Source: a virus (Duplodnaviria; Heunggongvirae; Uroviricota; Caudoviricetes). Taken from it: a DNA stretch of 14,648 nucleotides. The DNA lies in the IMG/VR virus record IMGVR_UViG_2548876863_000002. One strand, written 5' to 3'. The position numbers were made by a program, and so were the translations under genes. Every line of letters begins with the position of its first letter. Within the stretch, counting starts at the first letter, position 1. Below the pieces are notes generated by a model. The model did not search any database. It had not been told where the DNA came from and saw only the letters and a list, made by a program, of their open reading frames with translations. Below are positions 1-14,648 of the stretch, one piece after another.

Positions 1-52
1 TCCTGTTTACCTCTTTCTCAGGGAGTTTAGTCTCCAGGATTCCCGGGGCGGT

Positions 53-559
53 TCAGCTCATGTTGTTGGCGTATGTCTGCCCGGCGTTTGCCTGACCTTG
101 CAGCGCACCAAGCCCAACGTTTGCCAGATTGTTGTAATTGCTCATCTGATTTGATAACCAAGACTGACCGAGTGTCGGCGCGATCGTAGCCAGTTGATTG
201 CTTGTGGCTGTCGAACCAAGTCCACCCGTCGCCTCCGCAGCAGCAAGACTCTGGTAACGCGCCTGCCCTGCAAGGTCTTTATACTGCTGAGAGTTGTAAT
301 ACTGATTAAGTGCCTGCCCCTGACCTTCTAAACTGGAAAGGTTCTGAAGCTGGTTAACATACTGCTCCGCAAGAGGCGTGAACGGAGCAAGGTTTTTCAT
401 GATCGTCTGCCACTGCTGATTTTGCAGGTCTGCGGCATACTTCTGAGCTTCTGCTGCATATTTTGCGCTTTTATCAGAGTTGCCACCTTTCCCGCCTTTT
501 TCAGGGCAATAAGGTTCCTCACCGCGCAGTTTTCTGCCCAGTTTAAATGCATATAACAT
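53..559 (-). CDS. Ejection / internal virion protein, P22 gp7-like (168 aa)
   Basis: ATG at 559-557 preceded by GGGAGA 5 nt upstream. N-terminus MLYAFKLGRKLRGEE matches my memory of P22 gp7; position after the gp14-like gene fits the P22 order 26-14-7-20. C-terminal half is Q/N/G/A-rich. Shorter than the 229 aa I recall for P22 gp7. Confidence 0.6.
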   Translation of the reverse strand: MLYAFKLGRKLRGEEPYCPEKGGKGGNSDKSAKYAAEAQKYAADLQNQQWQTIMKNLAPFTPLAEQYVNQLQNLSSLEGQGQALNQYYNSQQYKDLAGQARYQSLAAAEATGGLGSTATSNQLATIAPTLGQSWLSNQMSNYNNLANVGLGALQGQANAGQTYANNMS

Positions 560-11434: not shown

Positions 11435-11956
11435 TCAGCAAGCGATATCGAGAGTCAACTGCAGTTGCTCGCGCCAGTACTCGACATTTGCTTCAATAAC
11501 CGGCTTATCCCATCGCCAGCGAGCCATCTCTCTTGCCCCATTGCTGGCTTTTGATTTCCGGTCATCGCGAATGCGACATGCTTGCTCATATTTCTGCTGC
11601 TCAGTCAGTTCACCGCGAAGCAGACTATCAATGTGCAGGTCGCACCACACAGCAAAACGAGCATCACACCAACGGGCAAATGCAACTGAAAGTTTTGGAT
11701 GTAGCCACGTACCACCACCCCTGTCCTTTCGTGCCTTGCTGGTTTTTACATACCTCGATTGTGAGGGATGTAAAATTTGAGATTCTTTCCCGGTCAACGC
11801 TTCGTCTAAAGCACGAACGTATTCAAGCGTTTCTGCCAAACGCATCCAGTTATCAATGCGTTTCCCAAATCTCTCAGCAACACCTGTGACGTTGATCCAA
11901 CCATCAGTGTTGAAACTGACAATTTCACCTTTGTAATTAAGTGGCACGATATTCAT
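11435..11956 (-). CDS. KilA-N domain protein (173 aa)
   Basis: ATG at 11956-11954. Carries the KilA-N-type signature: ...FGKRIDNWMRLAETLEYVRAL...GGGTWLHPKLSVAFARWCDARFAVWCD. Confidence 0.65.
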   Translation of the reverse strand: MNIVPLNYKGEIVSFNTDGWINVTGVAERFGKRIDNWMRLAETLEYVRALDEALTGKESQILHPSQSRYVKTSKARKDRGGGTWLHPKLSVAFARWCDARFAVWCDLHIDSLLRGELTEQQKYEQACRIRDDRKSKASNGAREMARWRWDKPVIEANVEYWREQLQLTLDIAC

Positions 11957-12158: not shown

Positions 12159-12596
12159 TTACTTCAGGCATTGCGTCCTGATGTACTCCTGCAGGTAGTT
12201 AACCTGCGCGGTTATCCTGTCGATTCCACTTCGGAGACGGTAATAATTGAGTTCAGCATCTGCTGTAAGTCTTGGGCTTTCTCCATCGCCCATGCTGCTG
12301 GCTCCGGTCGTTGACTTTGCACAGGTGGCGGCGACTTGCAGGCGCTTACGACCAGCAGAAACATCAGCACGGAGACTTTCGATAGTCGCGTTAGCATCAG
12401 CAAGCTCCTTTGTATATCTGGCATCGAGTTCTGCTACGTCACGTTGACGCTTCTGCATGTCAGCAATGATGTACGTGGCCTTATCGCGCTGTTCTTTATA
12501 GGCAATGGCTTTATCACGGTAATGATTAACAGCCCATGACAGGCAGACGATGATGCAGATAACCAGAGCGGAGATAATCGCGGTTACTCTGCTCAT
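12159..12596 (-). CDS. Rz: Rz i-spanin (inner-membrane spanin subunit)
   Basis: From the ATG at 12596-12594 the product begins [28 protein letters not shown], essentially the lambda Rz N-terminus. The start overlaps the endolysin stop as ATGA. The track ORF starts 4 codons earlier (MGAAM). Confidence 0.85.
12212..12397 (-). CDS. Rz1: Rz1 o-spanin (outer-membrane lipoprotein), nested in Rz in the +1 frame
   Basis: ATG at 12397-12395 with AAGGAG 7 nt upstream. Signal peptide [20 protein letters not shown] with lipobox Cys, then a Pro-rich mature region ([16 protein letters not shown]). 61 aa, entirely inside Rz. Confidence 0.78.
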
Positions 12597-13097
12597 TGCT
12601 GCCCCCATAAACAGACTTCACGCTCAATCTCACGGCGAGTCATCAGCCCTTTCCATTGCTTACCGCCAGCGTATGTCCAGCGACGTAGCTGGTCACATGC
12701 GCCTTTGATATCACCCTGGTTTATTTTGCGAAGAAGCGTCGATGTTCTGAAATTGCCAGCCCCCCACGTTGTAGACGAACGAGTAAAGAGCGCCGCGCGT
12801 TGTTTCCGGTATATCGACTTTGATGTACGGGTTAATTTGTCTGGCGACCGTGGCAAGGTCTTTATTCAGGAGAGCTTTGCATTCTGCTTCGGTATACGTT
12901 TTACCGAGCATGATGTCTTTTCCTGTATGCCCGTAACATACAGTCCATACACCAACTATGTCTTTGTAAGGATTATGTCTCACACCTTCCAGACCATCGT
13001 TACCACTTGGGCCAGTGATTAACACAGATGCTATAGCAATAGCCCCGCCACTTATCGCCGCTATTACGCTATTTCGTAGTGCCGGTGACATTGCCAT
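12593..13097 (-). pseudogene. SAR endolysin (phage 21 R-type lysozyme) interrupted by a +1 frameshift
   Basis: The N-terminal ORF (12711-13097) has a Gly/Ala-rich signal-anchor-release helix ([16 protein letters not shown]) and the E-x8-D-x5-T catalytic motif ([17 protein letters not shown]). The C-terminal part continues in another frame (12593-12856: ...[55 protein letters not shown]). The frames meet at a C6 run on the plus strand (12760-12765); one fewer G would give a continuous ~167-aa protein reading ...[11 protein letters not shown].... Confidence 0.7.
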
Positions 13098-13272
13098 TCA
13101 ATCTGTCCTCGCGCTCTTTGCGCTTGTAGTACCAGTTGATGCCAAATGTGCCGACAGTACAAAGAATACCAATGATGACAGCCCAGTCATTCAGGGAGAG
13201 AATGCCACCCATCGCAGTCAGTCCTCCGAAGCTGTAACTGAACCATTCTCTGATTTTGTCCATACGGTACAT
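13069..13272 (-). CDS. Class II holin (pinholin-like, two transmembrane segments) with dual-start motif
   Basis: 67 aa beginning M-Y-R-M (ATG TAC CGT ATG at 13272-13261), i.e. two in-frame starts separated by a basic residue, as in lambda S. Gly-rich first segment ([17 protein letters not shown]), more hydrophobic second segment, charged C-terminus. Its 3' end overlaps the endolysin start. Confidence 0.7.
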
Positions 13273-13278
13273 GCTCTA

Positions 13279-13294
13279 CCCCTTCATTGAGGGG
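13279..13294 (-). promoter_or_regulatory. Stem-loop over the holin ribosome-binding site (analogue of the lambda S upstream hairpin)
   Basis: Minus-strand CCCCU-CAAUGA-AGGGG ends 6 nt before the first holin ATG and contains the GAAGGGG ribosome-binding sequence. Lambda has CCCCUUAUUGGGGG at the same place. Confidence 0.45.
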
Positions 13295-13562
13295 ATTTGC
13301 TCTATTTAATTAGGAATAAGGTCGATTACTGATAGAACAAATCCAGGCTACTGTGTTTAGTAATCAGATTTGTTCGTGACCGATATGCACGGGCAAAACG
13401 GCATCAGGTTGTTAGCGCAACCTCTTGCCACCCGCTTTCACGAAGCCAGCCATTGAGCTGGTTTTCTTTTATGCAAAGCACACCGCACCGTAGCCACAGC
13501 GGATAAGGTGAGGGTTTTGTCTGTCTGGTTTTTGGTGGAATGCGCTTTCAGAAATGTCGTGC

Positions 13563-13586
13563 AATAAAAAGGCCGCCTTAGCGACC
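13563..13586 (-). terminator. Intrinsic terminator of the cargo ORF
   Basis: Minus-strand RNA GGUCGC-UAAG-GCGGCC followed by UUUUUAUU; the ORF's UAA stop codon sits in the loop. Confidence 0.55.
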
Positions 13587-13853
13587 TTTATTTGAATTTG
13601 GATTCCCTCTCCATTTCCATTCATCTTTATGAGCTGCAACGCCAAGTTCGGTAAGAGAGTAGTATTGCATTAAGCTATGATATCCGCCGTTATTATCACG
13701 GTCGAAAAAGCCAACAGCAAGATATCCATGACGGACCAATGAGTCAACCATGAGAATCTCATCATCCTGTACGTCAGAATCAGCAATTCTCTCCTGCTTA
13801 AATTGAAGAATTCGATTGAGAAAATGCAGTTCTCTTCCAGAGATTTTTTCCAT
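13578..13853 (-). CDS. Hypothetical small protein, cargo (moron-type) gene between tR' and the holin (91 aa; 118 aa from the alternative start at 13934)
   Basis: The frame is open from the ATG at 13934, which has no ribosome-binding site. The internal ATG at 13853-13851 has GAGG 5 nt upstream. Visibly AT-richer than the flanking late genes and followed by its own terminator. No homolog recognised. Confidence 0.45.
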   Translation of the reverse strand: MEKISGRELHFLNRILQFKQERIADSDVQDDEILMVDSLVRHGYLAVGFFDRDNNGGYHSLMQYYSLTELGVAAHKDEWKWRGNPNSNKGR

Positions 13854-14163
13854 AACAACCTCGTCTAGTTGCTCGTCTATGTTCGCTATGGCAGGCAGTG
13901 ACGATACTGCTTTTCGACTGGCCGGTCTAGCCATAGCTGAAGGGGACCAGTTACGTTTATCAGGCGTCTTTCGACCGATTTCCTGAGGTAGCAGGTTAGG
14001 ATGTGGTGGCTACTACGTGAGACTTAGCTCAGCGCCCTACAGGAAGGTTCTTTGGCTGAGTACCCATTACAAACCCTGTTTTAACCACATGGGGAAGCCA
14101 ACTCTCCCAAATACTTAGTGTCGAGCCTAAGCAGGGCATGAAAGAAGGCTTTCCGTTGTGCTT

Positions 14164-14200
14164 AAAACGCAAAAAGCCCCGAGACGTTAATATCAGGGCT
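14164..14200 (-). terminator. tR'-like intrinsic terminator of the short pR' leader transcript
   Basis: Minus-strand RNA AGCCCUGA-(10 nt)-UCGGGGCU (8 bp, one G-U pair) followed by UUUUUGCGUUUU, about 25-60 nt downstream of the predicted pR' start. Confidence 0.5.
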
Positions 14201-14219: not shown

Positions 14220-14261
14220 ATCGTTAGAGTCAAATTTACCCAACTTTATTCAAAAAGTCAA
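14220..14261 (-). promoter_or_regulatory. Late promoter pR' with Q-utilisation region and pause-inducing element
   Basis: Minus strand TTGACT-(17 nt)-TAAATT-TGACTCT-AACGATGGGTT is near-identical to lambda pR' as I recall it (TTGACTTATTGAATAAAATTGGGTAAATTTGACTCAACGATGGG). The -35 is at 14261-14256, the -10 at 14238-14233, and the AACGAT element at 14225-14220. Confidence 0.8.
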
Positions 14262-14303: not shown

Positions 14304-14648
14304 CTAACGTGTGACTGCATTCAAAATGTTGTCTGCGATTGACTCTTCCTTGTGGCATTGAACCACCAGAGCGTCATACAGCGGCTTAACAGTGCGTGAC
14401 CAGGTGGGTTGAGTAAGATTTGGGATTAGCATCGTTACAGCGCGATATGCGGCGCTTGCTGGCATTCTTGAATAGCCGACACCTTTGCATCTTCCGCATT
14501 CTTTCTCAACAACTCTCCCCCACTGCTCTGTTTTTGCTATATCAACTGCCCGACCTGTACCGTGGCAATCTCTGCATCTTGCGCCCGGCGTCGCGGCACT
14601 ACGGCAATAATCCGCATAAGCGAATGTTGCGAGCACTTGCAGTACCTT
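14304..14648 (-). CDS. Q: Late antiterminator Q, lambda type (C-terminal part; 5' end beyond the window)
   Basis: The frame is open to the window edge; the track's M at 14636 is a GTG inside the gene. Sequence ...ATFAYADYCRSAATPGARCRDCHGTGRAVD...CGRCKGVGYSRMPASAAYRAVTMLIPNLTQPTWSRTVKPLYDALVVQCHKEESIADNILNAVTR matches the lambda Q zinc-binding C-terminus from memory. Stop TAG at 14306-14304, about 45 nt before pR'. Confidence 0.8.
   Translation of the reverse strand, partial: KVLQVLATFAYADYCRSAATPGARCRDCHGTGRAVDIAKTEQWGRVVEKECGRCKGVGYSRMPASAAYRAVTMLIPNLTQPTWSRTVKPLYDALVVQCHKEESIADNILNAVTR

Follow-up and report, generated by a model that had tools for sequence, protein, structure and literature searches.

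The lysis region of a caudoviral genome fragment, IMG/VR record IMGVR_UViG_2548876863_000002, raises the question of how a holin gene unrelated to that of phage lambda came to follow a leader that is almost a copy of lambda's, and what kind of holin it encodes. In the stretch analysed here, 14,648 nucleotides (nt) long and referred to as the window, an earlier note made from the letters alone had placed a gene swap of this genome at the holin start codon, where a lambda leader would be fused to a pinholin-like holin. Our analysis indicates that the locus is very probably a lysis cassette of the kind that is standard in the late operon of P22-like (lambdoid) prophages, here of the PS34/PS119/ST104/SE1/SPN9CC/BTP1/Emek type, for which both a mechanism and a history of exchange are proposed below. 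The similarity of the window to lambda is normal lambdoid mosaicism.

Alignments to lambda, to DLP12 of E. coli K-12, which served as the phage-21-type reference, and to P22-like genomes confirmed that the region upstream of the holin is lambda-like and mapped the breakpoints. BLASTN matches window positions 13445..13277 to lambda 45015..45181 with 95.3% identity over 169 nt (E 3e-73). In an ungapped comparison, 114 uninterrupted identical bases run upstream from 13290 (lambda 45170) and are followed by four mismatches, which gives 152 identical bases out of 156 up to 13445, and upstream of this position the identity collapses. The near-identity to the untranslated region of lambda S stated in the earlier note was therefore borne out, including the two strings it quoted (CGTGAAAGCGGGTGGCA and GCAAATCCCC). 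The similarity does not end at the start codon, as had been claimed: the last base in common with lambda is the T of CCCCT at 13290, in the loop of a hairpin and 17 nt before the holin ATG, although GGGGTA and CATG still agree with lambda beyond it. In the multiple alignment, the joint reads ...GCAAATCCCCT-TATTG--GGGGTAAGAC-ATG AAG ATG in lambda and ...GCAAATCCCCT-CAATGAAGGGGTAGAGC-ATG TAC CGT ATG in the window. Across the holin gene, no BLASTN similarity to lambda, P22 or DLP12 was found, and the 67-amino acid (aa) open reading frame (ORF) at 13069-13272 is, as predicted, not lambda S. The lambda-type leader is present in 184 phage records. The 5' edge of the lambda-like block coincides exactly with a terminator-like hairpin (13446-13461) with an A/T run (13462-13470) on the plus strand, GAAGCCAGCCATTGAGCTGGTTTTCTTTT, which points against the direction of the late operon; at this place, a hairpin of other sequence is found in P22 and PS34.

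Several sequenced phages contain the same junction. The leader, holin and endolysin together (13562-12590) are 95.6% identical at the nucleotide level to Salmonella phage vB_SemP_Emek and 91.3% to PS34, the stretch from Rz through the KilA-N gene is 97.3% identical to Emek, and both phages have the gene order of the window. The holin coding sequence is 100% identical to that of Emek and 98.5-99.5% identical to those of phiKp_30, ST104, SEN22, SE1, PS119, SPN9CC, BTP1 and others, while 31 phage records, including PS119, Emek, BTP1, SPN9CC and SE1, encode a protein with 100% identity to it, under the annotation class II holin, gp13 or holin. Because the holin is identical in annotated phages, the swap between leader and holin is old and widespread, and the idea that it is a feature of this particular genome had to be given up. 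The cassettes of PS34/PS119, ST104, SE1, SPN9CC, BTP1 and Emek (13-19-15 or hol-lys-Rz) carry the same holin (100% aa and 98.5-100% nt identity) and share with the window the leader, a holin gene whose 3' end overlaps the start of the endolysin gene, the signal-anchor-release (SAR) endolysin and the Rz/Rz1 order; the window differs from them by a 590-bp insert and a +1 frameshift in the endolysin gene, and by having its nearest match in an E. coli prophage rather than in a Salmonella phage. This closest overall match, a prophage in E. coli OkiPb01684 from bovine faeces, is identical over 14648-12252 except for one base. Judged by its sequence, the lysis cassette is an ordinary one that many P22-like Salmonella and E. 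coli phages carry and that has been sequenced before, and its leader-holin mosaic exemplifies phage mosaicism in an arrangement that is already known.

Downstream of the holin, the relationships change again. Similarity to DLP12 starts at 13092, five bases inside the endolysin gene, and continues to 12348 with 85% nt identity (BLASTN). Rz is 90% identical in aa sequence to P22 gp15 and 58% to lambda Rz; its 5' part from the ATG (12596-12348) is 78% identical to lambda at the nucleotide level and its first 28 residues are the same as in lambda, while from 12562 on it is 87.7% identical to P22 (BLASTN). The view that the spanins are lambda-like again thus applies to these 28 residues, and the remainder of Rz is of the P22 type. 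Read in order, the segments are a lambda-type leader, a PS34-type holin, a 21-type SAR endolysin with a lambda/21-type N-terminus of Rz, and a P22-type remainder of Rz/Rz1. Every joint coincides with a gene border or lies no more than a few bases from one, in line with the suggestion of the earlier note: in the hairpin loop, at the endolysin start with respect to phage 21/DLP12 (13092), and at the overlap of endolysin stop and Rz start with respect to lambda (12596).

The window copy of this cassette is not intact. The endolysin has a hydrophobic, SAR-type N-terminus and retains the region of the E-D-T motif, but its PF00959 domain is divided between two frames, 12711-13097 (profile positions 3-85) and 12593-12856 (profile positions 77-125). 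The split results from a +1 frameshift in a run of six G at 12760-12765 (within 12756-12767, GTGGGGGGCTGG), owing to which the first frame stops after 128 aa; an R21/RrrD-type SAR endolysin in one intact reading frame was consequently not found in the window. The SAR-type endolysin of the earlier note is hence present by its N-terminus and interrupted as a gene. As written, the cassette cannot yield a full-length endolysin, which counts against a working lysis mechanism in this copy, and together with an insertion sequence (IS) end at the left edge of the window the frameshift suggests that the cassette may be non-functional. That the cassette is a decaying remnant of a defective prophage, with a real frameshift, has a little less than an even chance of being correct. 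The six-G run is the sole difference in 505 nt from the intact rrrD gene of OkiPb01684, which has five G, and it was present in none of 42 related viral loci with the sequence motif around this run. Window positions 1-58 match, with 98% identity, the outer end of an IS3-family element, which is multicopy in E. coli OkiPb01684 (L007 9652-9709 and 4790-4844), and P22-like similarity, in the ejection-protein region, begins at position 57, so that an IS apparently interrupts the prophage at this edge; the OkiPb01684 copy of the prophage also carries IS insertions. An extra base in a homopolymer is, however, the commonest sequencing or assembly error, and the cassette is otherwise intact and the same as in functional phages. 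The frameshift may reflect either genuine decay or a sequencing error in the homopolymer. In an annotation, the holin should be given as a class II, HP1-family holin with dual start, and the endolysin flagged as frameshifted.

The end of the leader folds into the predicted hairpin over the ribosome-binding site (RBS). The stem CCCCU-caauga-AGGGG at 13294-13279 spans -22 to -7 relative to the ATG and has the form of the lambda sdi leader, whose stem-loop is reported at -21 to -7 (bioRxiv 10.1101/2025.05.14.654169). In lambda and in the window alike, a G-run in the 3' arm ends at -7 and is followed by a 6-nt spacer, and this G-rich arm is the Shine-Dalgarno (SD) sequence for Met1. The holin then starts with ATG TAC CGT ATG (M-Y-R-M, 13272-13261), that is, with two in-frame start codons and a basic residue between them. 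Lambda S likewise has two ATGs and a basic residue behind its hairpin, but its loop, spacer and coding sequence are unrelated and its second start is codon 3 instead of codon 4. The dual start asserted in the earlier note is therefore real, whereas the notion that it was kept from lambda was rejected, since lambda has M-K-M with another spacer and distant relatives of the holin have dual starts behind unrelated leaders; the motif is native to the translation-initiation region of the holin lineage itself. Such starts were read in the open frames of tblastn relatives with 38-55% identity: MKM in Yersinia vB_YenM_210.17 (53% identical), MRM in Morganella and Providencia, MTRM in HK225 and MKNM in Enterobacter vB_Ecl_MII_001 (38% identical), and DLP12 EssD begins with MKSM; the relatives in APSE-7 and mEp013 have a single start. 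Every dual-start gene examined has an upstream hairpin with a G-rich 3' arm that ends 5-8 nt before the ATG.

Across the holin modules, the stem occurs in the paired variants CCCC/GGGG, CCCCU/AGGGG, CCCCA/UGGGG, CCCCAA/UUGGGG, CCUCAC/GUGAGG, CCUCAC/GUGGGG and CCUCC/GGAGG. RNAalifold, run on 18 diverse leaders, missed the sdi hairpin because loops of unequal length misalign, and covariation was for this reason taken from the list of stem variants and not from a formal count. An alternative pairing returned by a search for the longest hairpin, CUUAUU/GGUAAG in lambda and CUCUAU/GUAGAG in a PS34 variant, was dropped because it is not conserved in the window's variant. The dual start is a recurrent design of lambdoid holins of both classes, in agreement with reports for lambda S and S21 (PMC9636201; bioRxiv 10.1101/2025.05.14.654169). 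In E. coli OkiPb01684, PGAP calls the holin from the second start only (L007 7386-7580, 195 nt, 64 aa), which makes the dual start and the longer form invisible in its RefSeq annotation.

A survey of IMG/VR indicates how widely the leader design is combined with different holins. An exact 22-mer of the lambda-type leader occurs 125 times, including loci fetched earlier, and only two types of gene lie downstream of it, lambda S and the 67-aa holin (about 29 occurrences). The hairpin variant is strictly tied to the holin type in this set: CCCCTTATTGGGGG with TAAGAC precedes lambda S, and CCCCTCAATGAAGGGG with TAGAGC precedes the 67-aa holin. In a second scan, keyed on the 10-nt arms of an inverted repeat in the leader and covering viral contigs, the succession of repeat arms, a 23-32-nt variable loop, hairpin, 5-8-nt spacer and dual start was found ahead of at least six holin types, and the N-terminus of the partner endolysin was classified in the fetched loci. 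These types are lambda S/P22 gp13 (PF05106; soluble endolysin N-terminus in 118/118 loci), the 67-aa MYRM type (PF16080; hydrophobic, SAR-like N-terminus in 84/84), a 78-aa MKNM type (PF16080/PF04971; soluble in 14/14), a 105-108-aa M[F/Y/L/V]RMNT type without Pfam match (hydrophobic, SAR-like in 18/18 loci with MFRM), a 107-aa, LydA-like MNKM type (PF16083; soluble in 5/5) and proteins of 106-119 aa without Pfam match. Holin type and endolysin type are strictly inherited together in these loci. One leader-loop variant was found with different holins, which places the exchange joint consistently at or just after GAACAAATCC. The position of the joint at the end of the conserved inverted repeat, in the hairpin loop, implies that 3' hairpin arm, spacer and dual start travel with each holin module. 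The survey thereby illustrates that the functional unit of exchange is a holin and endolysin pair, each with its own translation-initiation region, and that a short invariant inverted repeat marks the upstream joint.

The M[F/Y/L/V]RMN[T/N] proteins are holin-like proteins of 93-108 aa (M[F/Y/L/V]RMN[T/N]xNGFWSYFW..., no Pfam match) from IMG/VR loci L284, L293, L291, L312, L349, L350 and others. With the 67-aa holin they have in common the 3' arm of the hairpin, the spacer and codons 1 to 4 (TAGAGC ATG TWC CGY ATG), and a SAR-type endolysin gene comes next in 18 of 18 loci. They may represent a further holin family with two transmembrane domains (TMDs) that shares its translation-initiation module with the 67-aa type.

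By family, the 67-aa protein is an HP1-type holin. It matches Pfam PF16080 (Phage_holin_2_3) over residues 5-53 with 75.1 bits (cut-off 28.8, E 4.4e-21) and PHROG 20 'holin' (3.5e-25), while NCBIfam contains no model matching it. The two hydrophobic segments and the Gly/Ser/Thr-rich character of the first one, both noted earlier, are supported by hydropathy prediction: TMD1 (W10-L27) consists to 50% of Gly, Ala, Ser and Thr and has a mean Kyte-Doolittle (KD) hydropathy of 1.02, and TMD2 (W30-Y49) has 30% of these residues and a mean of 1.34. With a short charged N-terminus and a basic C-terminal tail (6 K/R, 3 D/E), this corresponds to a class II holin. TMD1 of EssD, with 58% Gly, Ala, Ser and Thr and a mean KD of 0.44, is similar, a composition suggestive of a SAR-like helix. 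Two TMDs, the first of them weakly hydrophobic, and a SAR endolysin partner in every relative examined make the pinholin type the most likely one, and the pairing in 84 of 84 loci supports a functional pairing of the 67-aa holin with SAR endolysins.

Several observations weigh against this assignment. The score against PF04971 (Phage_holin_2_1, phage 21 S) is 19.5 bits and thus below the cut-off of 26, and BLASTP against the S21-type EssD gives a non-significant E of 0.024 over 27 aa; on these scores, membership in the S21 family was rejected. The 78-aa relative (MKNM...) passes both models, which links PF16080 and PF04971 distantly, but since this PF16080 member stands ahead of soluble-N-terminus endolysins in all of its 14 loci, family and two-TMD topology alone do not imply a pinholin. 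More generally, PF16080 (holin superfamily II) is defined by sequence and its members differ in the type of the partner endolysin, so that membership does not fix the mechanism. Furthermore, canonical holins can also serve SAR endolysins, as in phage P1. The 67-aa protein could accordingly be a canonical large-hole class II holin, whose SAR endolysin is freed by any depolarisation and whose pairing reflects co-inheritance only, and its position outside the S21 family as well as the presumably large holes of the 78-aa member agree with this; yet the strictness of the pairing, the EssD-like composition of TMD1 and the very small size of the protein (64/67 aa) make it rather unlikely. We conclude that the 67-aa holin is probably a pinholin, a term that, for a protein of the HP1 and not of the S21 family, we infer from partner and composition. 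The pinholin-like character proposed in the earlier note is thus favoured by the SAR pairing, with a TMD1 of suggestive composition, and is not matched by the family. A literature search on the PS34/PS119 holin returned nothing relevant.

The cassette can further be compared with two known lysis systems. The lambda holin has three segments and 107 aa (PF05106) as opposed to two segments and 67 aa, and the lambda endolysin is the cytoplasmic transglycosylase R as opposed to a SAR-type enzyme. The S21 holin (EssD) of phage 21/DLP12 resembles the window holin in its two-TMD, N-in/C-in design (predicted here), its weakly hydrophobic TMD1, the hairpin over the SD sequence and the M-x-x-M dual start with one extra basic residue (MKSM versus MYRM), and DLP12 rrrD is 85% identical to the window endolysin from the sixth base onward. 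In contrast, the holin sequences lack significant similarity, the leader is unrelated, DLP12 has no inverted repeat, and the holin-endolysin junction is TAATG in DLP12 and a 29-nt overlap in the window.

On this basis, a mechanism can be proposed, in which the pinholin type and the SAR endolysin act together. A Q-antiterminated transcript from the late promoter pR' would pass the terminator tR', the insert, which is a moron, and the conserved leader into the four lysis genes. The hairpin at the end of the leader, the G-rich 3' arm of which would act as SD for the first of the two in-frame starts (M1-Y-R-M4), would set the ratio of two holin forms and hence the time of lysis. By analogy with lambda S and phage 21 S, the M1 product, longer and with one extra positive charge (Arg3), would be the antiholin and the M4 product the active holin. 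Depolarisation would then release and activate the membrane-tethered endolysin, after which the Rz/Rz1 spanins would break the outer membrane. Use of both starts, the antiholin role and the formation of small holes are expected here by analogy, and the underlying mechanisms of lambda sdi, the S21 dual start, pinholins and SAR endolysins are described in bioRxiv 10.1101/2025.05.14.654169 and PMC9636201. The lambda identity of the leader is best explained by horizontal exchange among lambdoid phages, in which one leader is interchangeably combined with several holin and endolysin pairs.

The most constant part of the leader is the inverted repeat, the arms of which (GGATTTGTTCTAT and ATAGAGCAAATCC) are predicted to pair in a 13-bp stem; the sdi 5' arm begins with the two bases that end the 3' arm of the repeat. 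In a sample selected blind to the repeat, comprising 126 loci chosen by the pattern of 3' hairpin arm and ATG and containing 34 distinct upstream variants, the repeat was present in all 34 variants and its 5' arm was exact in 33; changes in the 3' arm are A-to-G only and keep U.G pairing, and the loops and flanks belong to several unrelated sequence families. RNAalifold on the 18 diverse leaders selects the repeat stem, with ten pairs that are all kept and none of which is compensatory. Invariance without covariation is compatible with either an RNA stem or a sequence-specific site. The consensus GGATTTGTTC...GA[A/G]CAAATCC includes lambda (L001), P22 (L004), L136 and many IMG/VR loci, and the loop contains a semi-conserved ATTCYTAAT in its 3' part. 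The leaders of DLP12, HK225, Yersinia and Morganella lack the repeat, which has no match in Rfam and was not found described in the literature when its sequences were searched as strings; in genome contigs, the pattern gave, among the matches listed, almost only chance hits in unrelated metagenome-assembled genomes (Treponema, Kiritimatiellae and others).

That the leader is shared through functional constraint on an RNA or protein-binding site rather than through recent exchange, with the joint marking the end of the constraint, is unlikely, because the invariance of the repeat arms over at least 34 leader variants with diverged loops and flanks, and the hairpin and spacer kept ahead of unrelated holins, are outweighed by the 114 consecutive identical bases, which include the 26-nt loop that varies in other phages and so indicate recently shared ancestry with lambda's copy, and by P22-type leaders being only 73% identical (window 13562-13331, BLASTN). 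Recent exchange, the explanation preferred here, is nonetheless compatible with a constrained core. It is a speculative and improbable extension that the 10-13-bp repeat, overlapping sdi by two bases, serves as a universal adaptor, either as an RNA stem in competition with sdi or as a site bound by a protein, and so provides a constant platform for docking and regulation, behind which holin and endolysin modules with a compatible 3' hairpin arm, spacer and dual start are swapped while control of lysis timing is kept. If true, the window would be one case of a general plug-in system for lysis modules and not a chance mosaic joint, and a regulatory repeat would add an element to the well-studied lysis-timing circuit of lambda. 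The repeat and the insert upstream of the leader are the only items of this locus that possibly deserve a separate look.

The cassette belongs to a late operon start of the lambdoid type on the minus strand, as read from ORFs and Pfam matches; the coordinates are collected in Table 1. In BLASTN comparisons, the Q and pR' region (14648-14215) is 94.9% identical to lambda, the region from gene 23 through tR' (14648-14155) is 91% identical to P22, and the remaining window consists of P22-like virion genes with about 77-81% nt identity. The terminator tR' is the one that Q-modified polymerase reads through. The start of Rz1 was chosen by analogy with the 61-aa Rz1 of P22.

Table 1. Features of the late operon and lysis cassette in the 14,648-nt window
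Feature	Position	Strand	Basis
Antiterminator Q gene, 3' part, cut by the window end	14304..14648	minus	Pfam PF03589 Antiterm, 2.6e-33
Late promoter pR' (TTGACT-17-TAAATT)	14233..14261	minus	Consensus scan; inside the block aligned with the lambda and P22 pR' region
Late terminator tR', hairpin and T-run, ctcggggctttttgcg	about 14165..14190	minus	Aligned with annotated P22 tR' 37917-37945
Insertion of about 590 bp, tR' to holin leader	13563..14154	minus	Gap in alignments to lambda, P22, Emek and PS34
Leader, full	13273-13562	minus	Stretch between insert and holin ATG
Lambda-type late leader block	13290..13445	minus	152/156 identical to lambda 45015-45170
Inverted repeat of the leader	13293..13344	minus	Arms GGATTTGTTCTAT 13344-13332 and ATAGAGCAAATCC 13305-13293, 26-nt loop
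RBS hairpin, CCCCU/AGGGG, loop CAAUGA	13279..13294	minus	Folding and stem covariation; counterpart of the lambda sdi stem-loop
Holin, 67 aa from Met1, or 64 aa from Met4 at 13263	13069..13272	minus	PF16080, PHROG 20
R21/RrrD-like SAR endolysin gene, frameshifted	12593..13097	minus	Pfam PF00959 split over two frames
i-spanin Rz	12159..12596	minus	Pfam PF03245, 3e-36; start overlaps endolysin stop (ATGA)
o-spanin Rz1, nested in Rz, +1 frame, lipobox LVVSAC	12212..12397	minus	Pfam PF06085, 2.4e-20
KilA-N gene	11435-11956	minus	Beyond Rz/Rz1 in operon order

The 590-bp insert is 100% identical in E. coli OkiPb01684. In phages encoding Shiga toxin (Stx phages), the toxin genes occupy the equivalent position. 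Within the insert, on the minus strand, an Rfam int-alpA RNA (RF02996) is predicted at 13871-13937 over the full length of the model (43.7 bits, gathering threshold 35.8, E 4e-8); its end lies 18 nt before the ATG (13853) of a hypothetical ORF at 13578-13853 that encodes 91 aa, or 118 aa if translation starts at 13934. This ORF, which matches no Pfam, NCBIfam or PHROG entry, is a rare moron, and its homologues form only 9 clusters in a collection of 5.8 billion proteins, none of them with a protein name; their sources are E. coli, Yersinia proxima, Sodalis ligni and Serratia. A terminator-like hairpin, aaggcggcctttttatt, comes after the ORF at about 13580-13563.

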